Shown: positions 10,500 to 56,236, counted from the whole stretch's first letter. The stretch: 56,236 nt of DNA, filler included, from Bipalium vagum (GCA_037834085.1; 3 parts of 3 records of this genome joined end to end with filler, not necessarily neighbours in it); one strand, 5' to 3'. The notes: generated from the letters alone by a model not told the origin. Program-made: numbers and translations.

Positions 10500-10790
10500 G
10501 ATTCGATAGTCTGAATCAAATGTTTTGTTGCCATGTCTGTACGAAGCCTTGTCCTTGGAATTGAAGACTTCCTATCACCCAGTTTTGACATCCTCTAGAT
10601 TATTGGATTGATGTCCTCGAAGAAAATGTGTCATTGTCCAGAAAAGGTAATAGTCAGATGGCGCAAGGTCTGGGCTATAAGCTGGATGCGGTAAAAGTTG
10701 TCCACTCAGTTTTCTGACTTTTTCCATTACCTTTCTGGCCATATGTGGTCTTGCATTGTCTTGCTTTAAATACATGCAACGGCATTATCA
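10500..10790 (-). mobile_element. Mariner (DD34D) transposase catalytic C-terminal fragment
   Basis: ORF 10575-10775 contains QDNARPH and HPAYSPDLAPSDYYLF. Confidence 0.9.
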
Positions 10791-21408: not shown

Positions 21409-21913
21409 TCTTCTTTTAAATCTTTATTCATTTAATCAGAGATGTTTCACTTGCAAACCCAAAAAGATCTATTCTTGCGTCGAGGAAATTCCTGGATAAG
21501 AAGTCCACATTGGCGTTTGGAATCACCTAAGGTTCCAGGAGCTCTGTGCAAAGGATTTTATGAACATCAATGAAATAAATTAGTAATATATTATTGATTT
21601 AGAAGTCATTATTGAATTAAAAATATACGACCGGAGACGACGGTCAATTGTTCTCTGGATATTTACATAATGAATTAAAGTTTCATTTAATGGTTTCATA
21701 CAATGGCTGCATTTCGTTCCATTTAACAACTCCAAATGTAATGTCAGCACGAGACCTACAATAAGTTTTACAATAACAATAACGACAGTATTACCATTAA
21801 TAATAACAAAAATGAAATTGGACATAAAACATTCAAGGAATAATGATTCTAGGCTTAAGAAAAATAATTTTTAACGAAATTCCGTTCTCAAAACCGATTT
21901 TTAACACAAAATA

Positions 21914-21946
<33 letters not shown>

Positions 21947-22036
21947 TTGCATTTGACTGCTAAGTTAGAAATGTGCGTTTTCAGGAGTTAGTTTATATCG
22001 GGGTTGAAATTCCGTTAAAATACAATAATTCCGAAT

Positions 22037-22741
22037 TTTGTTTAAATATATGTTGTCATGGTTATGGTATTTTAAATTTTTGTTTTAATGCTATAAAAGT
22101 ATGTCAATTTAAATTTTTATAATAATATCAAAAGTAATAAATAGTACAGACTGTTTCATAATTAGCTCAAAACTCTAAACTTGCTTTAAGAAGTCAAAGT
22201 AGTGAGCAATTATATTTATTTATTACATACAATAACAAATGAACATGCTGTTATAATAGATGCTCAATCTCGTTACCTTCTTCCTACAAAACACGCTGAA
22301 GACGAAATGATAAATTTGGCGGTACACTTTTGTTATCTTCTGTGTAACATGCATCTGAAATGGCTTTAAATTCAGCTGAGTATGCATTATTCGGGAAGTC
22401 TTGATATAGGAGTGTTAGTTTCGCGTGAAACATCTCGTCCAGATGACGTTGGATTACTGCTCGACGAATGCAAATGCTGCACTACTTTGGCAACTGCTTC
22501 AGAGCGTTCATGTTGGGTGCTTAATCTGCCTTGACCTTTCTTATTAATATAATTAGGGGTAGGGTTAGGTTTAAGGTAAGAGTATAACTATGGTAAAGAG
22601 AAGAATGTGGGCTAGAACTAGAATTGTTTTATAGTTGATTTTCGTCTTTTTGAGGTATATTATTATTAAAATACAATTAATTTTTTATTTAAAATAAAAG
22701 GTTTTAAATAACGTAACCATAACAACATAATATTAAACAAA
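22037..22741. repeat. Old inverted-repeat-bounded non-autonomous element (~705 bp)
   Basis: 22037-22076 vs reverse complement of 22702-22741 match 33/40; internal degenerate TTAGGG-like tract at ~22553-22577. Confidence 0.5.
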
Positions 22742-24094
22742 CTAGAGAATTGAGATTTTTTCATCGAAACAGATCCGATGTGGAATTCGTTGGCCGTATC
22801 TATTTATTTTACCAATGAAATGTAAATGATTTGCTCAAACACCTCTCAGTAATTTCATGAGTATTTTGTCGAGAATCTGTCTCACTGACTTCTTTTAACT
22901 CATCATCTACTGTTTGAAAACGTTTTCCATGCCGATCATCTCTCAGATCGATATTTCCATAAATTAAATCGTTGAATGTATCTCCTACATTGACCATTAC
23001 TAATAAAAATGTCACCAAACACATCGCAAATTGTTCGATATGATTCAGCGGCCATCTTATCTGAAATACAAATGCGAAGTTTTGGTCATCCATATTTCTA
23101 AGTTCATTTTTCAACTGAAAATAAAGGAAATAAAAGATAATGTTGATAAAAGTATTATAAATGAGACAAATATACACCATAACATTTAAAACACGCGGAT
23201 GTTTATGCAAAAATAAATTTTATTCATTAAAACGCGAATTTGTCACTTAACAATCTAATATTATTACATTTATTATCATTCTTACCGTTATGGTTATTAT
23301 TGTTAATATTATTATTATATTATTAGTAATAGTAATAGTAATCGTATTGTCCTAATTTTGTCACTCTTCAAACCATTTTCCTATCAAAATATTTCGTATT
23401 TTCTCCTAATTCCATCAAATAATTTCTTCAGGTTTCCATTGAAAAATTCGTAGGAAGCTGATATTTCGTTCTTATTTTCTGCTGGTTGATCCTATCAGAT
23501 TTCCATAAATCATATCGAACATTAAAAGATAAATTTACATACCCCATAATGCTAGATGAGATATCTGGATCACTTGAAGTGGAGAATTGGGAATATTCAT
23601 CTCAATTATAAAGTTAAGATGGTGAAGATAATACTCCATCATTTCTCGTACGATCATAAGAGCAATTTGGAATTTGCAGGCTAATTTTTGATAATTTCTC
23701 TTTTCCATTGGTTTTGATAAATACTAATTCGAGAATTATCGTTTTATATTTGGGGAGATTTGGTGTGGATTTTAATTATTTCGTAATAGCTTGACAATTC
23801 CTGGTGGATGCAATATAATTTATCTTGTATATAGTTTATCTACATTAGACCCAAGTTCCCATGTCCCATATGTTGCACAAAGAACTAACTTTGTGAATCC
23901 TTTTACATGAGGTCTATGGTTCGAAAGTAATTCTGAATAAAAGAATATATGATGAATATTCTGAATTCATGGATTTCTGTAATCTCTGCTAGAGACTATC
24001 AACCTCAAAAAATTTCATACGGACCAAAAAGTTTACATAATCGCGAGTTAAAAGGCTTTAAGAAATTTCAGTGTGTAATTAAATATTCGCTTTA

Positions 24095-24265
24095 TTGAAT
24101 TGCAGTAGGACCTAACTGGTTTGAACAAGATTGGCCAGTCTAAAGATGTTTGCATCTGGGCAGAGTTGGAGTGATCAGCTAGAAACTCGAAAGATGGGGA
24201 GCTACGCTTGTTCAGGTTTAAATTAGAAAAAACACTATTGCAAGACCGCCTCAGTTCTGACGGGC
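24095..24265 (+). mobile_element. BEL/Pao integrase C-terminal (DUF5641-like) remnant
   Basis: IAVG...LHLGRV...SKDGELRLFRFKIRKNTIARPPQF resembles the WxLGRV...GxDGxVRxVxVKT...RP motif. Confidence 0.5.
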
Positions 24266-24451
24266 ATATACATGGTCTAAATAAAAGAATTTGGAAAGAA
24301 GTGTCTTCAATTTTAAAGGTGATGAATCAAAAGTTTGGTTACGAATAACTCATCACAAAATCCGTCAATAATTTATTTAGCTTTTGGAATTTATTTTAAA
24401 CGTTATAACATAAGTGACTTCAATCTCACAAAGGATTTAGAATTTTATTTA

Positions 24452-25280
24452 CAGGGTGTCCCATAAGTCTCTGTGGAAAGTAAACTTAATTATCTTTTTA
24501 TTAAATTCAATCGATTGAAATTTCTATTTCTATAATATTAAAGTATGTAAGTTTACGTTTTGTTTAAATATTTTAAAATTAGATTTAGCAAATGCTGCTT
24601 GATTTGAAGTTAAGAATCAAAATTGTAATTTTAATGGCCAAATTCAACTCAATTTGTGCTGTTAAACGGAAATTAAATGCTGAATTTGGGAAAACCTCAC
24701 CAAGTGAAAGTGCTATGAGAAAGACTTTTCATCGTTTTTGTGAGATTGACTCGGTGGAAGATCATGAACGTTCTGGAAGACTAAGACTGATCACTGAAAA
24801 TGAAGTTCAGTAAATGAGTGAAGTTACTGAAAGTGACCCACAATGCATGGTTCGATTTGTTGCAACCACCTGCTCCATTTCGCAAACCCATTAAATTATG
24901 AGAGAACAATTATCATTGATACCCTTTAAGGTCCGTTTCACCAAGGAATTACATGAAGAGGATTTGCAAGACAGAGTAAAGATGTGCAAAACCCTGGTCC
25001 CAATGTTAGAAAATTTGGATAATCAGGAAAATATTTTCTTTTCAGATGTAACGTTTTACCTAAAAGGATTAGTAAATAAACTTAACGTCAGAAAGTAATG
25101 CACATGTTACTTTTGAAACTGCTAAAAAATCCCAGAAGGTAAATGTTTGGTGTGCTTTGTCAAAAAATAAAATTACCGATCCGTATTTCTTTGAAGATGA
25201 GACTGTTAATGGCAAAAATTATATATAAATACTTCATGACTATTTTATGTTTGAAGTGAGGAAAATGAGCAAAGTACGGT
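24452..25280 (+). mobile_element. 3'-truncated Tc1/mariner-superfamily element (DUF4817-type transposase pseudogene)
   Basis: TA-CAGGGTGTCCCATAAG left end; ORF pieces 24592-24813 and 24898-25098 (RSGR, IFFSD.TFYL.GLVNK.NVR); then KVNVWCALS and PYFFEDETVNG.NY. Confidence 0.85.
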
Positions 25281-26491
25281 CTAACCCCACTAACTTTTGG
25301 AAGTCATCCACTTAAGTTTACGTTTTTAAACTTAGTATGAGTATCCTTAATATTAATGATCAAGGTTAGATACTGCTTATGTATGACAAATAGTAATTAG
25401 TTGAGGAATACAAGTATTTATACTGATATTAACTACTGAATAGTACATCATCTTCAATATAATTTTGAAATTAAAGTGTGAAAATGTAATCAAAAATTTA
25501 AATGTAAAAAAGCTCTTAAAGTACTAAAAATGAAATTTTAAGTCGAAAGAGTCTAACATTTAATGATTATCATATCATTTTACAAGTGCAATATAGAAAA
25601 TATATAAAATAAAAGAATACTAAGTATAAAATGATATGAATTCACCAATTACTTGAGATATTACTTACGCTAGTAATTAGATTTCGAAAATGTAAAGCAA
25701 AATAATTTTCCTATTTAAAGTCACTTTAAAAAAATAACTATAAAATAGTCTATTGTCAACTAAATATTTTATGTTGTGACAATTTTGTTTGAAAATTAAT
25801 GTAGACAGACAACTGAATTTTATGATTCTCATATCCTCTTGTAATATGAGTAAAGCATAACAAAATCTTTTTCTATAATAAAAAATAATTTAGTAAGATG
25901 ACCACAGATATGACATTATTCTTTTTCAATTATATCATTAAGTATATGGTGGTCTTAAGTAAAGATTTTTTAAATATTAATTCGACCTCGATTTAGACCC
26001 CACATATATTTTATAAAATTGAATTTCTCTTCAATTTCCTTAAAATATATTGTCAACTTCTAAGTACCAGAAAAACTGGAAATTATTTCAATTCTTTTGC
26101 ATAATCTAAATCAACCACCTATAAAAAACCTTACACAATTCAACACTCATTTCACTGGATATCGTAATAACGATCGATATTGGTGAAAAATAATATTAAT
26201 AAAGATAAATAAAATCAATTGTGTTCGTCTTGGCATTAAAATAAATCTATATACATGAGGTCAAGGTCAATACATCATTGGAAAATGTGATTCTAAAGCA
26301 AAGACCAACCATTACCTCACGAAGCAGGTCGATCTGGGAACGGAAAGGATAAGGAGTTTTGGAGATGTCACGTAAAAAGAAACACCGGCCGAAGACAGCT
26401 CGCGACAAAGACATAGAAAAAAAGAGAGACAAAAGAAATCACTGGTGCACGCCGGAAGTCAAATGACGGTGGTAAAATGGAGAAAATCAAT

Positions 26492-28733
26492 TCAATCAAT
26501 ATCGCCACTTTGCACATTTCGATGGTCGCTGTCGTCGAAAGAGTATTTCATGTACCGTTGCAGCTCAGAATCGCAAAATTTATCAATACTGGGCCAAAGA
26601 GGCAAATGAAGTTGGTGAAGTTTCACATTGCTCCGCAACAAGCGTGATGAGTTACAATTGGATATATTCCCACTGTTTCCGTCTGTGCGTGCTTTATTGC
26701 CTGTGGAACCTGGATCAATAATAATAATTGTAATAATAAAACACTAAAATACAATATAATAATTATAATGTCAATAAAATAATTATAAATATGAAAAATT
26801 TTTATTTAATAATAATAATTAACAAAATAAAATAGATAATAATTGATTTTTTAATTAAGAAATTCAATTAATCAAAGATTGTATAGAAAAAATAAGGCAA
26901 CCCTTAGCGGAGGAGTCAGGCGGAGCGGACATGGTCAAAGAGTCTTTACTCATGCTGAGATGCATCATGATTTGTCGGGCGATAGGATTGGACTCGCGAC
27001 TGGTTATGTTGACGATCGATTTTTGCAACGACCACAGGGATCGTTTTGGAGGTCTGATGGAGAATTTTTTGTGAGTGAAATCGAATTTGTCAACAGCAAC
27101 GTCGATGAGTTCCGTTTTCGGTTCCCCTTTCATTTCGAAACACGTCCTGATCAATTCCAGGAGAAACGAGCAGGAGTTGCAGGAAGAGATGGAGAAAGAG
27201 CAATTATTAATTAATTATAATTATTAATAATGATATTAACAATTAATAACAATAAGAAATAATAATTTTAATAATTTACAATAATAATTATGATAATAAC
27301 AATAATCTCTAAAGTAATCAATAATAATGAAAATCAATAAAAATCTGAAATAATAAAAATCAAAAAATAATTGATAATTATTAAAAAGAATTATAATTTT
27401 TTCATGCGAAAAAGAAAATCAAATTTAATTAATTATTATCATTTGAAAAAATGAAACCTCAATTAAACGTTTGAGAAAAAAAATCAATATCACTGTCATC
27501 ATTCACTTACTTTATCAAACTGTGATCCAGTCGATCACTGATTGGCTGACTGTTTTCATTGACCGATGTGACCCCAAAATTATGATCAACGACTGATCGA
27601 TCGGAAGAACGCTTTCTCCATGACGACGAAGACGATTTACCACCACCACCACCACTACCACCGGAACCGATCATTTTTGTCTGTTTCTTCATCTGATGTA
27701 CGGCATGTTCGTCCGAAGAACCATTGCTCGTTGCACCAGTCGTCAATGACGTCGTCAAGTGCGAAGGGGTCACAACGGTCGGATTACCGGAACTCAAATG
27801 GCAAATTCGCAACTTGATCTTGGGAGAGCTCTCTACGATCGGTTGCGGAGCCGAATTCATGGTACAACCTGTTGCTGTCGGTGGCGTAACCAAGTTCGTG
27901 ATTGCTGGCTGTATCGTTGTCAAGGTCGTAACAGTTCCACCTGGAACTGTTAATAAACTGGCAGTTCCAATGTGACCCGTTGACGAGTTTGTAGTTCCAC
28001 AGTGAACCGGGGTCACCGTTGCGTTCCCTGGTGTTGGACTAAGCTTGGAACCCGCATCACCGATAATCTGACGACGACTATTGTAATGACGAATCGTTGG
28101 GCGTCCAGACTTGCTCAAAGCGACGTTGAAAAGCGCTCCGATTCGATTTTTTCCAAGTCCCGCAGCAGCAAACCAGGGACCGTCATAGTCAAGACTGACG
28201 CTCTTGTCCGGTTGCAAATAGAGCGGCGCCGATGGGTAACAGAAGTTTGAAGGTCGGTGGCTCAGGTAAGTTTCGAAGATCGTTAACGGACACTTGTCCT
28301 TTGCGTTGGGTGTCTCGTAAATGGTCTTGGGAACGAAGCGCGTGTTGAAAACGGCTCTGGACCCGTTGCTACTGGTTCCGGTTGGGTTTCCTGTGTTGTG
28401 ACTGTTGAATGAACGATTAAACAACATTTTCTTGATCGGACCTTCCTTGTCGACGATTATGTTTCCCAAGCATAACTTTGCGTGGTCGGTGCGACTGCTG
28501 ATGCCGAAATAGTGGGAAATGTAGAACCAAACAGACACTAAGATTTCTTCTGGTCCATAGTTGCCCATAGCTTTAGATTTCCATAAATTCTCGATTATTC
28601 CATCGCTGTACAGATTGTTCAGATCATCGTTTTGCATTTCGCATTGAATTTGAGAGGAAATGTTTGATGTTGTTACAATTATTAATTGACTGTCGTCCGC
28701 GTCTTCACTATCTGAATTGTCGTCTGATTTCAT
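26492..28733 (-). CDS. Crypton-derived DUF3504-domain protein (QRICH1/ZMYM2-4/KIAA1958-type domain), ~561 aa; exons 28733-27511, 27146-26902, 26709-26492
   Basis: DUF3504-like motifs: LW...MG...PEEIL.SVWFY...YFG....DH..L, CPL.IF..YLSHRP, PLYLQP, WF....LGKNRIG. The ORF-track 'stop' lies inside a perfect GTAAGT donor at 27510. Both introns are GT-AG with matching phases (2 and 1) and give one open 1686-nt frame. The second donor (GTTGCC) is weak. The frame is also open 15 codons upstream of the ATG up to a TAG acceptor, so an upstream exon is possible. Confidence 0.82.
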
Positions 28734-30184
28734 GCTGGAAATATGTCCAGATATTTTGGCGTTACTTATTTCAGGCCACTAAGGGGTAGTTAAATATAAA
28801 AGCGAAATGAAATTAAATTTTCAGTTTAATGACCAAGTTTAATAATTCTATTTCAAAAATGCACCAATTTTAAACAAATGTTTATCCCAAAACGTCGGCG
28901 TAAAAATTAGAGTTCGTATAATTAAAAATAATAATTAATATCTAAGATCGAAATCTAAGATTTAGAATTATTCAAAAATATTAAAAAGTATTAGTAAATA
29001 ATTTTTAAAATTTAATCAAATTCTACATAAAATTTTTTAATAAAGTAATTCATTTTATTTTTTATTCATAAAAATGTTTTTAATCTTTCATAAAAAGTTT
29101 ATATTTATAATTAAAGCTACAAATGTTAAGTGATTACGTAATTAAATTTCATTTACGTTCCCTAGTGCAAACAAATATATTTTGCCGAAAAATAATAAAA
29201 TTATCACTATCATAAGACAACCAACCAGCCTTGAAATAGGTAATTAAATGCTTTATGATTTTTATTTATAACAGGTTATTCTAGCTCTTATTGATTTTTA
29301 TATAGTTTTTTTTACCCTAAAGTAAAAATCCATAATAATAAACTATCGATGAAAAAATAAATTAATAATTAATAATCATTATAAATTTTTAAAGGCACAT
29401 AATTTCCTGTGTTGATTGATTTCATATTCAATTAAATTTGAAAATAACTAATATACTGACTTCCAAAATAGTTAAATTTTTTAAAAAAGGGCTTAAAATA
29501 TCGTTATTTTTCATCGATTGTGCTTTTTATTATCTTTTCTATTAATCTGGGATAATTAGTTTAGTAAGATAGGAAGTAGAAAAGTGTATTTGTGTTTTGA
29601 CCGTGGTGAGTTTGAAAAAATTACTGACATGTTTAATTTTTCTGTTGGAAAGAAATAAATTTTATTATGTAATCATGTAAGTTTTTGCCGATAAATCAAT
29701 GAGTGGACCTAATCACAATTACTGAATGAGTCAGATTGGGTTTGGTTTATATTGTATTAGCAAGTTGTTGCAATGTCAATTCCTTTAATAAATAAAACTG
29801 GGAAGTCATTTAAAAATATTTCAAAATAAAAATAATCAATGAATATGTGAAGATCGTGTCCAGGTGAAATACAACGAGGAGCATAAAAAACAATGGTGCA
29901 TTTATCTAACTCTATTTTTTGTTTCAAAAATTTAATTAAATTTTTTATGTATGTGTTATATACGAGATACCAATGACTTATATTTTGGTGATCCAATTAT
30001 TATCTTTTTTGTAATATTTGTGGTGATCGTGTCTGAGCTGCAGCTAGATGAGGTCCTTCCTAGAGACAAAGATTCATGCATGTAAAAAAATTGATTTTAG
30101 ATAATTTGATTTTAATTTATATTTTATTTAACATTATATTATTTCTGGTAAAAAGAAACTTATTTATTTTGTGATTAAATAATT

Positions 30185-30860
30185 CTGTCTTAGTGTATTG
30201 ATTTTATTTATTGTGTGAAATGTAAAAGCGTTTAAATTTTTTGGAATCAGATTTAGCTTATACCAATTGATTAGAAAGATTATCCATCAATCGATGTGTG
30301 TTTTTATGTTGCTCAGATGGCAGTCTGAAACAGGTATTACTACCGTTTTGGCAGCCAATTAAAGTTGAGAGTTTGACAGATTAACGATAAAAGTAGAATA
30401 ATACTTGGGTCTCATAAACCTCTATATATTTTTGGAATGATTATTAATAATTATAAAGTTAAATTAATTAAAAATTAATTCTGCGACAGTTGCTGTTATT
30501 AATAATAAGCAATTCGATAAGAATTAATCGATACAAATAATTAACATTCTTTTTTACTTGTCTCTGTGAGTTGATATTTGTTTGCAGTTTTGGTGAACTC
30601 GACGACAAAAATGTTATTCTTATCACAGAGACTCTTGACTTACTGTATTCCTAAATTTTATTATAATTTAATAAAATTGTAATCGTTATTTAAAAATATA
30701 CTTTAGTGGTGTTATATCGTCTTAGCAAATTTTTTTCATTTTTGTTGGTGTGAAATGTAGTACTATAAGTATCTAAATCTGTTGGAGTCAGATTTAAGTT
30801 ATCAAAGCCGATTAGAAAGGTGAGCTGTCAATCAACCTTTTGTATATTTTTCGTTGCAAT
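30185..30860. repeat. Diverged direct duplication (~130-bp alignable blocks, 535 bp apart)
   Basis: gtcttag...gtgtgaaatgta...ttggaRtcagattta...gattagaaag...tcaatc...gttgc at ~30187-30311 and ~30718-30857. Confidence 0.65.
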
Positions 30861-32244
30861 CACTACAGTCACTCCTCAACACTCAAACTGCTGTGCAGGA
30901 TATTCGTGATCATCCACATAATTCTTATATAGTTAATTTCAATATTATTTAAGGTCTCTCACTGGACAGTTAATCTGTCAATGACGACGTACATTTTTCA
31001 ACTAAATATTACAAAAAAGATTTTATTTCTAAAATATTATGAAAAATAAATTTATTATAGTTCTAATTAGTCTACTACTAATTACTTGTCGAATGATCTA
31101 AACTTTACCGAAAACAGAATTTCAAATACTGAGACTTCAATCGAAATCTTTAAATTAATATTTTTATTTAGTACCAAAATTTGATGATGTTCACATTATT
31201 TTTATAATTTACAGTAAGAGACAATTCTCACATATTGATCTGACAAGTCTAGAATGCAAAGTTGATAGTTAGAACAATAAGTCAAGTGTATTTCGTCTTT
31301 AGAACAGTCAGAAAAAATGTATTAAAAAGTAATTTGAAGACGACTTCTTAAAAATATTCAAAGACAAGGGAACTATTTCTAAATCACCATCTGAGTGATA
31401 AATACAAAGTGAAACTCCAGATATATTTTAAGTATATCCCAGGTGATTATTCACAAACCATTTTCTTATTTCTTTCATGCTCATCATAATCATTTATTTA
31501 AAGCACGATACACGGTTATCAAAATTTTAACTTAGTTGACCTCTATCATTTATAGTTTTTAATTATATTTAACAACTCATCATATTAAACTGAATTTGTA
31601 TTAATTTATCCTGGAAACTATGCACCTGACACTAATAGAAATAAACATTCCATTTTTTATCGTGGTTCGATATTTATGATTTTCTACTTCCACTTTTCAA
31701 CAATTGGTCTTTACATAAAGAACATTCACATTACGTAACCCATTGTCTCTGACTTCCAAAAATCAGTAGCGTCAATTTATAAGAAACTCATTTTAAAAAT
31801 AATCGATCTTAACATTTTACATGTCCATTATAACTTCAATTTAAAATCATCGCCAAGATTTGATAGATCACTAAAATCTTTCAAAACAATTTTAACAATT
31901 TTAAGTTTTTAGGAAGTCTTTTTAATTAGTCGATTTTAAAATATCGTGTTAAAAAATATCGGTCATTAACAAAAAATCCATTTATATATAAAAGTTGCAA
32001 TATCCGTCTTTGCTATCACTTTCCGTCATTGATTTGTTTATCGATTTCAAGTATAACAGTGTAAATATTCTAAAATCGATGATAATAATGACGGGAAAAA
32101 AGGTTCCATCAAAAAATTTCCTGATAAATCTCAATCAATCAATAAATACAAATAAATAAGAATCACACCACTTCACTGGTCGATTTCATTGTTTGGTTGA
32201 CTGACCACAAACGCATACGGAAAAAATCAATAAATCGTTTTTTC

Positions 32245-33414
32245 TCACATCAATAAACACTTCGAAGGTGACGCCGGTGTGTCAGAGGAAATGTGTCCCG
32301 ATCTGGCTGCTGTCGTTGAAGGAGCTTGCGCAGAAACGGGCTGAGAATGGTCGTTCAGAGAACGTTGTATCGCCAGCGCCAAATTATAATCCTCCTCTTC
32401 TTGTCGTTTTTTTCGATCGATTTCATTGTTTCGTTCCGAATTTGAACTCTTAAAACAAAAAAACAATTTAATTAATAATCGGTCGATAGAAAAATAATAA
32501 AATCATTATTTAAATTGAAAAATCAATATTGATAAAATCTTTAAAATAAGCCAATGGAAATTTTTAAGAAATCTAATTGGGTAAAATAAAACTTAAAAAA
32601 ATCAACAGTCAATTGAAGAAAACCCCAATTGGATAAATATGATACAATTAAATATTTTCAAAATTGAATATTAAAAAAATTTAAAATTGATTAAATTTTA
32701 AAAATGAATCAATAAAAATACTGAAAATTTAATTGTTTAAACTAAAATTTAAAACTAAAAAAACGATATATTTAATAAAAATCATTAAATAATTATAAAG
32801 ACTAGTGATTTTATTTTTTATGTTGGAAGAAATCAATACCATAACCATGGGAATGAGAATTACTTTGATCTGAGAAAATCGAAGTTGGCTGAATTTGCCA
32901 CAGTCGTGATCGACCTCCAATCGATGGCGCAGACAGAACGATTTGTGACAGCTCCCACAGACGATCTTCATCGTCTCCCTCGTCTTGCACCGGGCCACGG
33001 AACACTTATTGCTGAAGATCTTCAAAAGAGAAGCAGGACAAGAACAAGAGCTCGTGATCGAATAGTTAAAATCAAAAATCGATTATACTTTTCCTTTCAT
33101 CGATTTGGCGGGTTGAGACGTGCAGTTGGAGAGAATGTGGTTTTCCACGAATACGTCCGGTGGCTGATTACGGTCGCAGGGAATTGGCACTCCACACAAC
33201 GGACAGGCGGGGATTTGGAAATTGGTCGCGCTGGGACAGCCGTGGTCTTCAAAACGGAAGTGGTCTTTGCAAAACAGTTTCTGACACTGCTGACATTTTA
33301 TGGGTAGAAAATCTGGAAGGAAGTTTGTTGATTTGTGTTTGAATTGTTATAATTAGTACCTAACTGTCGACAATCGGACTTTGAACATTGAGCTCCAAGA
33401 TCGGGAAATTCCAT
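32245..33414 (-). CDS. ZFAND2B: AN1-type zinc finger protein 2B / AIRAP-like, 212 aa; exons 33414-33360, 33312-33089, 33019-32864, 32448-32245
   Basis: [25 protein letters not shown]..C...FCKDH (AN1); PACPLC..PIP......PD..V..HI...C (UBZ-like); second AN1 ending FCLRHR...DHDC; UIM EEEDYNLALAIQRSL; CaaX CLLM. Three GT-AG introns (47, 69, 415 bp) with consistent phases. Confidence 0.93.
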
Positions 33415-34827
33415 TGCAAAAGGTATTATGAAATTAATATATTACAAATAGATTTTTAAATATGAAGAGTTATTTAGATTAGATAAACAAACTTATTTTA
33501 CTACAGTATTTTGAGATTTTATGAATAATCACTGAAAAATACTTTTATTAATCTGCATAATTTATTATTAGTTAATTTATTTTTCAATTTTTTGCTACAA
33601 TTACTATCCTTGATTAATTTATTTATAAAATAATAACGGTAAACTATTGAAACAAGAAAACTATAACTTAAACAAACAATTTGTTTTGTTGAGATAACAC
33701 ACTGATGATCCTTATTACTGGGGCCCTTAAAAAGGTAACTTAACATTAAATATTATTTAATTTTTACAATTTTTCAGTATAATTAAGGTTTTAGTCAAAT
33801 AATTTTTATTTTTCTAAATTAATTAATATTTTTTGTTTTCTAGAAGTACAATTTCGATGACCCACTGATAAATGGAATAGCAACTGTGACTTTCTATTGG
33901 CTACGGGAGTTAAGGTCATGGAGATTCCTTTCAGGGAAAATATATCTTCAAAACGCACTAATATAAAACATGGTGAAATTATAATTATTATCAGAATGCC
34001 TTTAAACATCTCGGAATTAGTATAAAGACTCTTAATCTGTACAATCAATACATATTAACATCGTATAAATTATCGATCTGCTCTTTCTCTTTATTTCTAC
34101 TGTTGATATTTGGAACATTTTAATCAACTTATGAATTCAGTCTGACTCCAAAAATTCTATTGATTGTAATCACTACACGAGACCATAAATGTTTTTTATT
34201 TTAATTTTTAATAATATGAAAACTGATTATAGTTCGGGATTTCACTGGGTCTTTCACTCTAGTTAATAACTTGTTGGACTATAATTGAATTAAAATCATC
34301 ACAATGAAACTGGATTCTCTCAACAAAATGATACACAATCAAAGTCAATAAATGATTCAAGTTTATTAACGTGATACGATAAAAATATTCCAAAATCTGA
34401 TATCAAAAGGTCAATGGATCAATGTAACTCAAACAAAGTAACAAAAAAAATAAATAAATGTAAACCAACATTCAATTTAATAAATAAATAAATGTAATTG
34501 GTTAATGAATCGAATGTACAGGATCAAATGATTAATTGTCAATGACAAATAGTTAATAAAAATGTTTTGATTATTATTTAAAAGAAAAAAGCAGTTAACG
34601 AGTAACCGATAGGTGGTGATGGGTCATTGGGTCGTTAGATGAGCCCAATTTGTTCGCTCATAAGCAAGATTACATAAAATAAGAAGAATTATAATAAGTA
34701 AATTATTTTAAAAAAAAAACCATTACTCCAACCAAGTTCGAATCAAAGATTCAACTACAATAATATATTTTACGGAAAAGGTGGTTAACTGATTATATTA
34801 CATCAGTACATATTACTCAAGTACATA

Positions 34828-36425
34828 CACTACCGTCGGAAAGTATTTGTACACCCTTCTTAAAATGCAAAATGATAAATTTTTCTAACATAGTTAAATG
34901 TTTTCTTTAAAAACCAATTGTAATTGTAAATTTATTAGGATCCTTACATATAGATAACAATGGAACACAAAGATAATAAATTTTACAATATGAATTTCTA
35001 CATTTTAATTTTTATAAAATTTAGCTAAAAAATATTTTTAAAATCTTTATCATTTTATTCGGATATAATTAAAGCAAGTAAAGTTAAATTAATATTTTTA
35101 AATTACTGTTAATATAAATTAGTTGAAAAGCCAATTTCTTAATTAGTTCATTTTTGATTTTGTCTAAGTTGGGATTTAAAAATAAGTAAGATTTTTTAAA
35201 ATAATTTTAATGTTGTTTAATAATTTTAATATATTAAGGTATGGTTAAAACTATTGAGATTTCGCTGGAGAAAAGGTGTATGATTATTTCCCAACATAAA
35301 ATGAATATCAGTGCTCGTCACATTGGCAGGAATTTAAAATTATGGCATACCACAATCAGCGCTATAATAAAGAAATACAATGATACCGGTATTATTAAGA
35401 ACAATAAAAGAGCTGGACGACCAAGAAAAACTATTGATACAGAAGACCGTATAATTATAATAACGAACAAGTGTAATAGACGTCTAACGGCATCAGAAAT
35501 TGCCTCTCACATAAACCATGCCGGGAAAGAGGTATTAGCGTAACAACGGTAAAAGACCGGCTCATAAGGCCGGTCTATTTGGAAGAATTGCTGCTAGAAA
35601 ATCATTACTTCGGTCTAAAAATAAGAAGATAAGATTGAAATGGACCAGGGAACACCAAAACTGGTTATCCGAAGACTGGTGTCAGATACTTTGGTCGGAT
35701 GAATCGAAGTTTGAAGTTTTTGGATCTAGAAAGCGTGTATTTGTTCGCAGGTCTTCTGGTGAGAGGTTCTCAGATCAATGCATAATCCAAACAATGAGGA
35801 GGAGGATCTGTTATGATATTGGTTTGTTTTGGTGGTCCATCATTAAGAGATCTAATCAAAATTGATGGGAAACTATTCAATGAAGGCTATAAAAACATAT
35901 TACGAAGTAACGCTATTCCTTCTGGACTAAGAATTATCAGCAATAATTTTACTTTTCAACAAGACAATGATCCCAAACATAAAGCCAAACTATGTCAGGA
36001 TTATTTGAAAAATATGGAAAAGAAAATTATCATAAAAAATGATCTGGCCCTCTCAATCACCTGACCTTAATTCCATAGAGTTACTATGGGATGAATTGGA
36101 CCGAACTGTTAGAAAAACCTACCCAAATTCACAGAAGGATCTGTGGCAGAAACTCTAGAACGAATGTGTAAAAATTAAACCAGTTACCTTAAGAAATTTA
36201 TTAGAAAGGCTATGTCATATGATCATTGAAAAACAAGAAGGTTACATGGATGAAGCTTCGGTTAAATGCTTAATTAGTTATTTTAAATTTTTCTTATGTT
36301 ACTATGTATGGTAATTATCAATAAATATGTGTTGAAAAAATCTTAACTTTTATTGGTTTTTTGTAAAAGTTGTTAGAGTTCAAAGTTATACTTAAAGGGT
36401 GTACAAATACTTTCCGACGGTAGTG
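34828..36425 (+). mobile_element. Full-length Tc1 (DD34E) transposon, 1598 bp, with frameshifted transposase from 35241
   Basis: Perfect 31-bp TIRs CACTACCGTCGGAAAGTATTTGTACACCCTT (34828-34858 / 36395-36425); TA on both flanks; GRPRKT, WSDESKF, FQQDNDPKH and SPDLNSIELLW motifs spread across several frames. Confidence 0.97.
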
Positions 36426-38633
36426 TATATTTTATTCATCATGTTTTTATGCTATGTTATGTATTTCTACACTGCTACTACTACTACTACTACTACTATT
36501 GTTAAGATTTTTTTGTAAAAAAGCTAATATCAATATAAAATGTTTAATTGCTATCCGATTTTTTTAATTTTTTCAAAGAGTTATTACAATTATTTATAAT
36601 TAATTAATGACATTTATTTTTAATTTCCATAATTGCAATAAAAACTGTCTTATTTTCATTAAATTAGCTCAGTGTCAAAATTTCTACCACTAACCCTGAG
36701 AACCCAATAACCTAAATTTATCAAAATTACATTGTTTAAGAAACTGAACAGAATTTCAAATTATTACAAGAATATTATTATTTTCCATATCCAAATTTGA
36801 CAATGAATCGTAATTTATCATTAATAATTTTTTAAGTACTTAAAAACAATAATATCCATAAAATGTTATTAAATGGACATAAAATTCAACTAATTTTACT
36901 AGAAAAATTTTATGTTTAATAAAATTTTCAACTTTATCAGTATGCTTAATATTCAACGTAAGTTTATATTTGATTTTTAAAGTTTCTGTACGTAAAAATA
37001 TTTGTCGAAATTAAATTTTAAATCATAATTAAACTTTTCACGAAAAATTAACAATTATATACGAGATTATAAACGATCACAATTTTCAAATAATTGAAAT
37101 ATTTAAATTAAATGAAAGCATTAGTTTAATTGAATTAATCAGAAATAGATTAAATAAATAGCAGCACTATCCATTTGTAATTGATTTAATTACTTCCAAA
37201 AAATAATTGGTAATCTAATTTAAAATTTTAATTTCGATTTAGTGTTTGTTTAACTGCATTGATTTTATCAACGAGAATATAGTTTTTCAGGCACTTATAT
37301 AAACTCTTGTATTACATATTGCTGTCGAGAATTTAGTTCGTCCTTAAATTTTGTCAAATCAAGTTTTGGGAAGTACTATTTGACATGTCAAATGCCAATA
37401 ACCTGGTAAGATTATGGTTCATTTTTGATTTAACATTATGGCCATTTCAATCCATTTTAACTGTCATTTGCTTTGAACAAAAAGTACACCATGGTTTTCT
37501 GTTGATTTGGTTTGATGGCCAGTGTTGTTGTAACAGTTTTCAATATATATACATATATTGGAAGCCGTTTCTTGTCTAATTTGTCATTGTGAGATGAAAT
37601 TGTCCAAATTCGCTTTCCATTACTTAAAACGAGAGTTTTTTCGAGAGTTATTCAAATGAAATGGTCTATAATACCAGGAAATAGAGAAATCACAAGCGTG
37701 TTGCTCAAAGAGAAATATACAGAGAGAAATTAAAATTCTTGAAAGGGAAAGAATATATTTTAGATAAACGAATGTTCTCAATGAGAGTTTGTCCTTACCT
37801 CCATTGATTTAAGTGGAAAATTTTTTTTCTAATGATATTATCATATTTATTAATAATAATAATATTATTATCATTTTTAAAATCATTAATATTAATATTA
37901 TTATTTATTAATATTAATATTATTTTTAATATTATTAATTATTATTATTATCATTATTTTTAATAAATTATTATTATTTCTTTTAAAAAATTATTAATAT
38001 TAAAATTATTATTATTATTATTATTTAATAATATTATATTTTCAAATATTTATTATTATTAATATTAATAATTATTATTATTATAATTATTTTTAATTAA
38101 TTATTATTAATAATATTGTAATAATAACAATATTATTATTATCTAGTTATTATTATTTGTTTAGTTATTTTTACAAATTCTATTTAGTGATTTTTTTTTT
38201 TCATGAAATTTTCTTAAATTTTGATCGATTTTAAAAAAATATTATTTTGATTTGTCAGATTATTAAAAATCAAAATTATTGATGTTCATTTTCGATTTTA
38301 TTAATATTTGTCACAATAAATGAAATCACTGTGACATTGAGTTAAATATGTATTGATTAATTAGCCTAATTTATTAATCTTTTTATTTTTTTTAAACACG
38401 TTTTTTAATGTTGGAATTTTTATTTTGTAATTAATTATTTCTTTTTTTCCTGTTTTATAATTATCAAAAAAATATTCAAAAGAATTTTTCAGTTTTCTAC
38501 AGAGAAAAAATTAAATTAGTAATAAAAAAAGATTTCTGAAAATTATAAATATATTTAAAATTAAAACAATATTAAATAATATTAATAGGTCTAAGATACA
38601 GGGTCTTCCAAAAGAAGCATTACTACTTTTAAC

Positions 38634-49767: not shown

Positions 49768-50690
49768 CGAGGGTGGGTTGAAAAGTTCAGTGATACAATA
49801 AAATCGAAACATAAACAAATTTATTTTTCAATGTTGCCTCCTACAAGCTGATCAAACTTTATTAAAGGTTTCTCAAAATCTCACTATTTGACGAAAATCT
49901 TTGTCCATCGAGAATTTTCTTCAGGTTTCTGACGGGGCCAGATTTGGAGAATTAGATGGGTGTGGAATTAATTAATTAAGTGCAACTTTTTAAATTTTTC
50001 CCTTGAAAATTTACATGTGTGAGCAGGTGCATATCAAGGTTGAAAAAATTTGTTTACTCGACAGACCTGGACATTTCTCACGAATATGCTGTAACAGCTT
50101 ATCAAGTTGGTTTGCGTAATATAACACAGTTATCGTCTTATCTTTTTCAAGGCAGCCCATAAAAATAATACCTTTAGTAACCCAAAATACGGTAGCCAGA
50201 ATTTTTCCTGACGAGTGAACCGTTTTCGCCTTCTTGGTCGCTGGTTCATCCTTTGCTGTTCATTGCGTTGATTGAATTTTTGTTTTCGGCGGATAATAAT
50301 GAAGCCGGATTTTGACCACAGTGATAAATTGATTGAAGAAATCTGGATGATGTCGTAAAAGCTGCAAACACTGCTCTGAAGTTGCCACACGATGTTTTTT
50401 TGATGTGGCGTTATCACACACGGTACCCATCTTGCACACAGCTTTTTCATACTAAATTCTTCATGCAAGATGTGATGAACACGCTATTTCGAGATGCCTG
50501 TAGCTTCAGCAATCTGAATCAATTTTAATCTACGGTCTGTCAACACGATTTCTTGAATATTTTCCACCATTTCCTCGGAGGTTGCTGTTTTTAGTCTACC
50601 AGATCGTGGTGCCTCTTTAATGCTCACACCACCCTGATTAAATTGGCAACCAACTCGTAAACGTTTTTAATGAGGGTGAAAATTCAACCT
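49768..50690 (-). mobile_element. 5'-truncated mariner element with right TIR
   Basis: TA-CGAGGGTGGGTTGAAAAGTTC terminus at 49768; PRSGR, HEEFSMKKLCARWVP and PHPSNSPNLAPSE motifs. Confidence 0.85.
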
Positions 50691-55553: not shown

Positions 55554-56236
55554 CTGGGTGTTCAAGTTAAACGTTCATAAATAAAAGCGTAATATTTTTT
55601 ATGCTGTAAAGTTTTATTTAAAATAAATTTATTTGATCGAATAACCTTTATTGGGGATTTAGTAAATCCTACTTTATATATAAACTTATGTTGTTTAAAT
55701 GCATAAATAATGACAATAAATAAATGTACGTGTTTAAAATTAAATTAAATTTTTTGATATGTCTTACATATTATCAAAATCGGATAAAATTAGGCTGGTA
55801 GAGCTATTTTTTAAAACTGAGAGTTTCGCTGAAACTCAGAGAATATTTTCAACCGAAAAAAAATAAAACGAAAGAGTGACACGTCTTCAATACAGCAAAT
55901 AAGAAAAGTTATTTTTAAATTCCAGCAAACTGGTTGCATTAATAAAGATCACAATGTGCGATCTCCTAGAGCTTCAGAATAGAAAAGAAAGGATATTGAT
56001 ACTGTTTTACACCAGATGAAAGCAGAGGGAACATCTACGAGCATAAGGAAACTGATTTCTGCTTCAGGTTCCTCTATTGGATTAGTTCACACGTATCTCA
56101 GACGTGAATTGAAATTATTTCCCTATAAAGTTACAATTGGACAGTCTCTCTCAGACAATCATAAGTCAAATCGTTATGCCTTTTGCAAACGGATGCTGTC
56201 AAATATATCCAAGGATGATACATTTTTATCCCGAAT
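55554..56236 (+). mobile_element. Left part of a Tc1/mariner-superfamily (DUF4817-type) element running off the window
   Basis: TA-CTGGGTGTTCAAG end; ATG 55759 MSYILSKSDKIRLVELFFKTESFAETQRIF, frameshift in an A-run, then KFQQTG, STSIRKL, LRRELKLFPYKV and RYAFC. Confidence 0.8.

Follow-up and report, generated by a model that had tools for sequence, protein, structure and literature searches.

The minus-strand gene at 26492-28733 of the window, by which we mean the whole analysed stretch of 56,236 nucleotides from the Bipalium vagum assembly (GCA_037834085.1), is best explained as a single-copy domesticated Crypton recombinase, likely the orthologue of a three-domain protein of neodermatan flatworms and likely a nuclear adaptor. 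We assign this reading a probability of about 0.65. Membership of the gene in an old flatworm family, here called family A, is very probable on sequence comparison, and the surprise lies less in the gene alone than in the family that it revealed. Kojima and Jurka (PMC3212892) describe four animal Crypton domestications, of which only WOC is placed in flatworms, with no sign of several families in invertebrates. Flatworms now appear, from their sequences, to hold WOC together with families A and B, that is, two Crypton-derived families beyond WOC. Two more families conserved in both free-living and parasitic flatworms would increase the domestication count and show repeated reuse of DUF3504.

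Gene model and copy number

The gene lies in the second part of the window (21409-38633), which is contig C70078 (17,350 bases) of a fragmented assembly (272,664 contigs). On the minus strand, the frame from 28778 to 27510 is open and unbroken for 423 codons, and the predicted coding exon 1 within it (27511-28733) encodes an acidic start, the DUF3504 domain and a Ser/Thr/Gly/Pro-rich tail, as judged from the frame, Pfam and a codon model. A sequence-only reading of the same DNA had proposed two introns. The junctions at 27511/27146 and 26902/26709 are indeed both GT-AG, and predicted splicing across them gives an open 561-residue frame that ends with a TGA stop at 26492. Codon use, under a model trained on seven other coding stretches from the same genome, favours the proposed frames: predicted exons 2 (26902-27146) and 3 (26492-26709) score highest in the proposed frame among all six (0.71 and 0.50 bits per codon), and predicted introns 1 (27147-27510; GTAAGT...AG, 19% GC) and 2 (26710-26901; GT...AG, 12% GC) score -1.1 and -1.0 bits per codon. 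One plus-strand frame across exon 2 is also open (0.54). Assignment of exons 2 and 3 to a plus-strand gene was considered and dropped, given that the best-scoring frame is the minus one and the introns are rich in T on that strand. Exon 2 contains a SUMO-site-like MKGE and a SIM-like LIDV, both of them pattern matches only. The first donor, GTAAGT, includes an in-frame TAA, and an unspliced 408-residue form is therefore possible.

Because the frame is open from 28778, directly after a pyrimidine tract and AG acceptor (28779-28800, minus strand; AG at 28780-28779), the 5' end of the gene as modelled is provisional. A second AG, at 28736-28735, is found directly ahead of the ATG. The 15 in-frame codons that precede the first ATG (28734-28778) are possibly coding, with 0.385 bits per codon over these 15 codons only. 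The acceptors ahead of the open frame would imply either a 5' exon or spliced-leader addition. According to PMC12582326, the flatworm spliced leaders reported so far all end in ATG. Our guess is that a spliced-leader ATG would fall in frame at 28778. No convincing upstream coding exon was found in 28800-32200, the best candidate scoring 8.9, compared with 27-42 for the inner exons and 5.5 for the short first exon of the ZFAND2 gene that lies beyond; an upstream exon encoding MYM fingers appears improbable. The ZFAND2-type AN1 zinc-finger gene itself (33414-32246, minus strand) has four exons and is located 3.5 kb upstream on the same strand; a ZFAND2 search intended to place the lineage gave no match. 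Past the stop, splice signals outline a possible 18-base exon (26316-26333, minus strand), with a pyrimidine tract and AG before it and GTAATG after it. A search of the 1.1 kb that follow the stop revealed no AATAAA, and the contig ends about 5 kb beyond the stop.

The gene is present once in the assembly. A search with its domain gave a single match at E<=0.01 (3/3 candidates scored), and DNA searches found exons 2 and 3 each to be unique. Depth over 27527-28400 at 85% likeness was about 20, from one contig, as compared with about 29,000 on a mariner relic 2 kb away. The Pfam family search yielded four places from six candidates, namely the focal gene, a short exon and another dead gene in two copies, and intact catalytic motifs were seen in none of these four when their frames were read. 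In a word-indexed homologue search (232-741 residues), not one of 189 candidates scored.

Three COX1 types are present in the assembly (L019, L020 and L021), two of which read best under the flatworm/echinoderm mitochondrial code and are 79% alike; the third is from a non-flatworm animal. In L019, AAA occupies the aligned positions of the NTSFFDP and GVN motifs at which the remaining COX1 types encode Asn. Many nuclear pseudocopies of COX1 were also seen. The assembly, therefore, represents a mixed sample. Together with the neodermatan best matches described below, the code usage indicates a rhabditophoran flatworm, and the tree position of the assembly's sequences suggests a triclad.

The DUF3504 domain

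A DUF3504-like core had been proposed at about 28583-28075, and Pfam places a DUF3504 (PF12012) match at about 28592-28131 with E 4.5e-19 (69.5 bits, cut-off 29.7). Family searches, a structure model and fold matches identify the same segment (28131-28592, minus strand, uninterrupted by an intron) as a dead tyrosine-recombinase catalytic domain. The two altered motifs lie where the sequence-only reading had put them: FGISS at 28508-28494, in which the first catalytic Arg is replaced by Ser, and HYNSRR at 28088-28071. The latter belongs to GRPTIRHYNSRR (28071-28106), in which the His of the HxxR box is replaced by Asn. In the alignment, 106/127 Crypton-type rows have R at the first catalytic Arg; the focal gene has S there, all 16 domain-1 and domain-2 rows of the parasite proteins described below have G, and their eight domain-3 rows have E. 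HxxR is found in 70/127 and GH..Y in 58/127 of the Crypton-type rows, many of which are truncated, and the focal gene has neither. Of the R-H-R-Y tetrad it keeps the second Arg alone; this Arg and the basic residues of the GKN[KR] helix are kept in the focal gene and in most domain-1 rows. Where the helices carrying the catalytic Tyr would be, there is a low-complexity tail (27513-28049) that matches no Pfam family over the cut-off and has a single basic patch, RKR, at residue 373 of the 561-residue model. The Pfam match and the motif census thus agree with a Crypton-derived, catalytically dead gene.

The domain is N-terminal, as had been noted, and searches of the gene's frames against Pfam revealed neither MYM fingers nor a BTB domain; a Q-rich region is likewise missing. 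None of the five assembly matches to PF25561, the core-binding/QRICH1 domain, is on the focal contig, and none falls in the focal frame. The core-binding domain and the catalytic domain together make up the clamp with which recombinases hold DNA. Active Cryptons differ from the focal gene in possessing an R-H-R-Y tetrad and a core-binding domain and in being multi-copy. The domain would have come from elements of the kind of CryptonA and the fungal Glomhoppers (PMC3212892 and PMC13465315), whose FG..., CP, RP, YLQP, W and GKN motifs are kept in the focal gene. The earlier remark that no element ends are recognisable stands as an observation, the repeats near the gene being AT-rich and attributable to chance, but it is uninformative because animal Cryptons lack terminal repeats (PMC3212892).

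The predicted structure of the domain (pLDDT 83) points to a kept tyrosine-recombinase catalytic fold. Its top match is QRICH1 in Zincore (PDB 9HJT, entitled 'Zincore (SEPHS1:QRICH1) binding to ZFP91 on DNA'), with Z 15.9 and rmsd 3.1 over 148 residues and a Foldseek E of 6e-8; this closest solved structure is 18% identical in sequence. Further matches are Cre (Z 9.5) and XerD (Z 9.2), followed by XerH, topoisomerase IB and Ndc10 (Z 7.3, rmsd 4.0, 138 residues). QRICH1 as the top structural match is expected of any DUF3504 domain, and a common fold shows no function. A complex prediction with two copies of the domain scored 0.00 and gives no verdict either way.

Family A, family B and WOC

Among 1.84 billion proteins, the ten best of 381 matches to the focal gene are all neodermatan. 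The best-match genera are Schistosoma, Fasciola, Paragonimus, Spirometra, Trichobilharzia, Heterobilharzia, Dicrocoelium, Clonorchis and Calicophoron, and fragments were added from Echinostoma and from the monogenean Protopolystoma (VEL31197.1). In single-domain comparisons, neodermatan sequences match with E 3e-27 to 4e-23, the best non-flatworm match being 1e-16. The sequence-only reading had envisaged a domestication particular to the gene's own lineage; that view is contradicted by the orthologues kept, with three such domains, in trematodes, cestodes and a monogenean.

Five full-length family A proteins of 1,757-2,996 residues (Schistosoma japonicum KAH8858263.1, Fasciola gigantica TPP64031.1, Paragonimus KAF7262206.1, Spirometra KAL7055639.1 and Trichobilharzia CAH8860943.1) each carry three DUF3504-type domains, with long linkers of low complexity between them and an insertion in the second domain. 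Pfam found nothing beyond DUF3504 and no MYM finger in these full-length proteins, and automatic annotation accounts for labels such as 'Zinc finger MYM-type protein' on family A entries. C2H2 fingers at the start of the Spirometra protein P0156 were set aside as part of what we take to be the tail of a retrotransposon that the gene model joined to the protein, and family A therefore lacks a true zinc finger in the rows examined. Like the focal gene, the parasite proteins combine dead DUF3504 domains and long low-complexity stretches with the absence of PF25561 and MYM fingers. The focal model, in contrast, has one domain and 561 residues, and it lacks both the N-terminal helix of the parasite proteins and the four-helix extension that follows their domain 1. 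The extension consists of confident helices at 462-542 in the S. turkestanicum model, a position at which the focal gene is of low complexity; a fold search with a parasite model of 667 residues gave weak matches (best Z 5.6) and was uninformative on it.

Sequence identity between the focal gene and the parasite domains is 32-39% for domain 1, 26-30% for domain 2 and 23-27% for domain 3; with Crypton-type rows it is 17-31%. The focal gene also has in common with parasite domain 1 an extension of the form G.P..R..N..R (block 408-457, E 6e-9), into which the altered HxxR box described above fits. Domains 2 and 3 are absent from the 17-kb contig and were not found in the fragmented assembly by three single-protein searches, which matched only the focal gene and family B. 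From sequence, the three-domain build appears to be a new arrangement of DUF3504. In the open-access literature searched, no description of either flatworm family or of a three-domain DUF3504 protein was found, and the main text of the Glomhopper paper (PMC13465315) does not mention flatworms.

For phylogenetic analysis, 169 domains were aligned, and trees of 61, 36 and 28 rows were built from sequences hand-picked to span a FastTree tree; four family B candidates without the anchor motif and four more failing the pattern were left out. The 61-row tree joins the focal gene to domain 1 with support 98/86 and to all three domains with 98/94; the corresponding values in the 36-row tree are 97/88 and 94/95. 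The grouping with domain 1 persists (98/99) when domain 2 is dropped. When domain 3 is dropped, only the wider clade keeps its star (100/98 without domain 3 and family B). Overall, three of the four trees place the focal gene with domain 1 and leave domains 2 and 3 outside that group. A grouping of the focal gene with family B is rejected (p-AU 0.036), and one with domain 3 is borderline (p-AU 0.05). Sequences from the B. vagum assembly branch outside all parasite rows in the 61-row tree. Resolution is poor at the deep branches of the DUF3504 domains, and the branches of the focal family are long.

Family B combines PF25561 with a dead DUF3504 domain, contains introns, and has orthologues in 20-odd fluke and tapeworm entries, to which it is 44-49% identical (clade 100/100). 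Its two copies in the assembly, at L011:613-1329 plus L010:8665-9378 (C210829) and at L016:1221-1878 plus L003:1165-1914, are 90% alike (L004/L011 and L003/L016) and are either paralogues or from two flatworms in the sample. Some of the fluke and tapeworm family B entries carry C2H2-like motifs.

WOC/ZMYM/QRICH1-type exons were identified on two short contigs (L015:212-1827 and L005:100-363) by Pfam and by alignment to QRICH1. L015 matches PF25561 (E 5.7e-15) and aligns weakly to QRICH1 residues 514-558; L005 holds the successive part, the end of PF25561 and the start of DUF3504, and aligns to residues 553-621 (E 1e-6). L015 also has a Pro/Val-rich exon, which we take to be of the kind found in ZMYM proteins. 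Given the mixed sample, these exons may stem from an organism other than that of the focal contig. Searching with a degenerate WOC-core pattern yielded three matches, equal to the control, none of which was a WOC exon. A phase-0 intron occurs at the same place in family B (the L011/L010 junction) and in the WOC-type exon (the end of L005), one residue beyond the Pro that comes after the LG motif; this common position may hint at common descent. The focal gene has no intron there.

Kojima and Jurka (PMC3212892) describe ZMYM2-4, QRICH1 and WOC as Crypton-derived DUF3504 genes and report WOC fragments in Schistosoma and Schmidtea. In WOC, ZMYM and QRICH1, the dead DUF3504 domain is C-terminal and follows PF25561, with MYM fingers in addition in ZMYM and WOC, whereas the focal domain is N-terminal and accompanied by neither. 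By eye, the schistosome WOC row printed in Additional file 4 of that paper differs from all three family A domains, and the WOC signature of the five printed rows (an FNTK start, no GKN and a VKEI end) is not seen in the focal gene, which keeps GKN. The same source treats KIAA1958a/b and KCTD1 isoform b as separate domestications reported only from vertebrates; like the focal gene they have an uninterrupted DUF3504 domain in one exon, and KCTD1b differs from it in carrying a BTB domain. We consider it highly likely from these sequences that the focal gene is separate from WOC. The earlier view that it is not an ordinary WOC or ZMYM orthologue is most likely right, as the WOC-type exons are separate and the gene is unlike the published schistosome WOC. 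A tapeworm 'zmym3' (PMC6821492) was not accepted as an orthologue of the focal gene, as its supplement gives the annotation GTF2I-related.

More dead DUF3504 proteins were found in other animals (P0116, P0151, P0145, P0186 and P0064), among which P0116 and P0151 have almost the same domain sequence. P0064 contains three tandem degenerate domains that show no relationship to family A in the FastTree analysis, and domain multiplication may, therefore, have occurred more than once.

Alternative explanations, possible function and neighbouring loci

One could envision that the gene is a recently decayed Crypton copy in which the splice signals arose by chance. This is very improbable: the 423-codon frame is unbroken, codon use is coding-like, there is one copy with no intact sister element found, and the family-specific changes are common to the parasites, so that the conserved orthologues largely refute it. 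A more serious alternative, which we nevertheless regard as unlikely, is that the three-domain protein is ancestral and our model partial, domains 2 and 3 residing in further exons beyond the contig or having been split off or lost. The grouping with domain 1 alone in most trees would place the triplication before the split of the focal lineage from the parasites, and the unexplained acceptor and donor at 26333-26316, together with the lack of AATAAA after the stop, would fit it. Yet exon 3 ends in a stop, a triplication confined to the parasites is not rejected (p-AU 0.095), and the searches with domains 2 and 3 recovered neither, though domain 2 is highly conserved (58-68% identical among the parasites). 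It is similarly doubtful, on balance, that an older domesticated gene, be it family B, WOC or a KIAA1958-like gene of lophotrochozoans, was duplicated to give family A, which lost the core-binding domain afterwards. Families A and B as one clade are not rejected (p-AU 0.23), similar dead single-domain genes exist in other animals (P0116, P0145 and P0151, with FGISS in P0145 too), and the poor resolution of the deep branches leaves room for such an origin. The best trees, however, separate A from B and place B, not A, with P0145 (96/72 and 97/87). Moreover, the focal gene is nearer to Crypton-type rows (mean 26%) than it is to family B (23%), keeps the Crypton GKN that is missing from B and from the printed WOC rows, and lacks the intron common to B and the WOC-type exon. 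An independent domestication, as first proposed, is likely; the qualification comes from the p-AU value for A plus B and from trees built without any WOC, ZMYM, QRICH1, KCTD1 or named KIAA1958 domain.

A different question is what the dead domain would do. One possible hypothesis is that it serves chiefly as a DNA-binding structural protein at centromeres or other repeats, the three domains of the parasite protein giving avidity. Yeast Cbf2/Ndc10 is described as a Crypton-derived centromere protein (PMC3212892), Ndc10 is among the fold matches, and the basic GKN[KR] helix residues and the second Arg are kept. Cbf2/Ndc10 and Gcr1, which derive from CryptonF, resemble the focal gene as dead recombinase folds reused by the host; they differ from it in being fungal, in descending from another Crypton group and in having a GCR1_C DNA-binding domain. 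The Ndc10 score, however, is within the range of general recombinase-fold matches. With the core-binding half missing, strong DNA binding by one domain seems less likely than a docking role, and we judge an Ndc10-like function improbable. An adaptor or transcription role is favoured over it and seems somewhat probable by analogy; the nuclear chromatin-regulator role suggested earlier likewise draws on relatives and fold.

Under the preferred reading, that of a single-copy domesticated recombinase with an adaptor role, domestication would have preceded the split of the focal lineage from the parasites, the core-binding domain would have been lost at or after domestication, and two further domain copies would have been gained by the parasite protein. 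The focal protein would neither cut nor move DNA. Its dead catalytic domain could offer another nuclear protein a surface to dock on, in line with the place of the corresponding QRICH1 domain in Zincore, perhaps with weak DNA-backbone contact through the kept GKNR helix, and the disordered Ser/Thr-rich tail could recruit co-regulators and take phosphate or SUMO. Zincore is cited as a zinc-finger co-regulator complex in PMC13538652, and other DUF3504 genes are described as transcription or chromatin regulators in PMC3212892, PMC9023290 and bioRxiv 2024.06.14.599007. In Mesocestoides, proliferating cells show raised expression of one DUF3504-only protein, which is listed as a parasite stem-cell marker, and differentiated cells show raised expression of another (PMC11732142); neither is assigned to A, B or WOC.

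A bolder and quite tentative extension is that flatworms tamed Cryptons twice more beyond WOC and that family A, having kept the dead catalytic domain alone, tripled in the ancestor of the parasitic flatworms into a covalently linked pseudo-multimer holding DNA or chromatin partners. The one-domain gene would then be the surviving ancestral form, possibly a stem-cell regulator without a human orthologue. A one-domain form in a group that is tractable by RNAi makes the poorly known function of DUF3504 directly testable. Schistosomes, liver flukes and tapeworms would share a conserved, putatively nuclear protein for which humans have no clear orthologue, a point of interest for the study of parasite stem cells.

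The remainder of the window contains decayed Tc1/mariner-type elements at 24450-25300 (very high copy), 35238-35862, 10578-10784, 50014-50666 and 55983-56234. A divergent tubulin gene (44745-42776, minus strand) matches Pfam Tubulin and Tubulin_C and has an acidic, Asn/Ser-rich C-terminal extension of about 170 residues. An intronless, rhodopsin-family GPCR gene that is peptide-receptor-like (13717-12707, minus strand) matches 7tm_1 and Srw.
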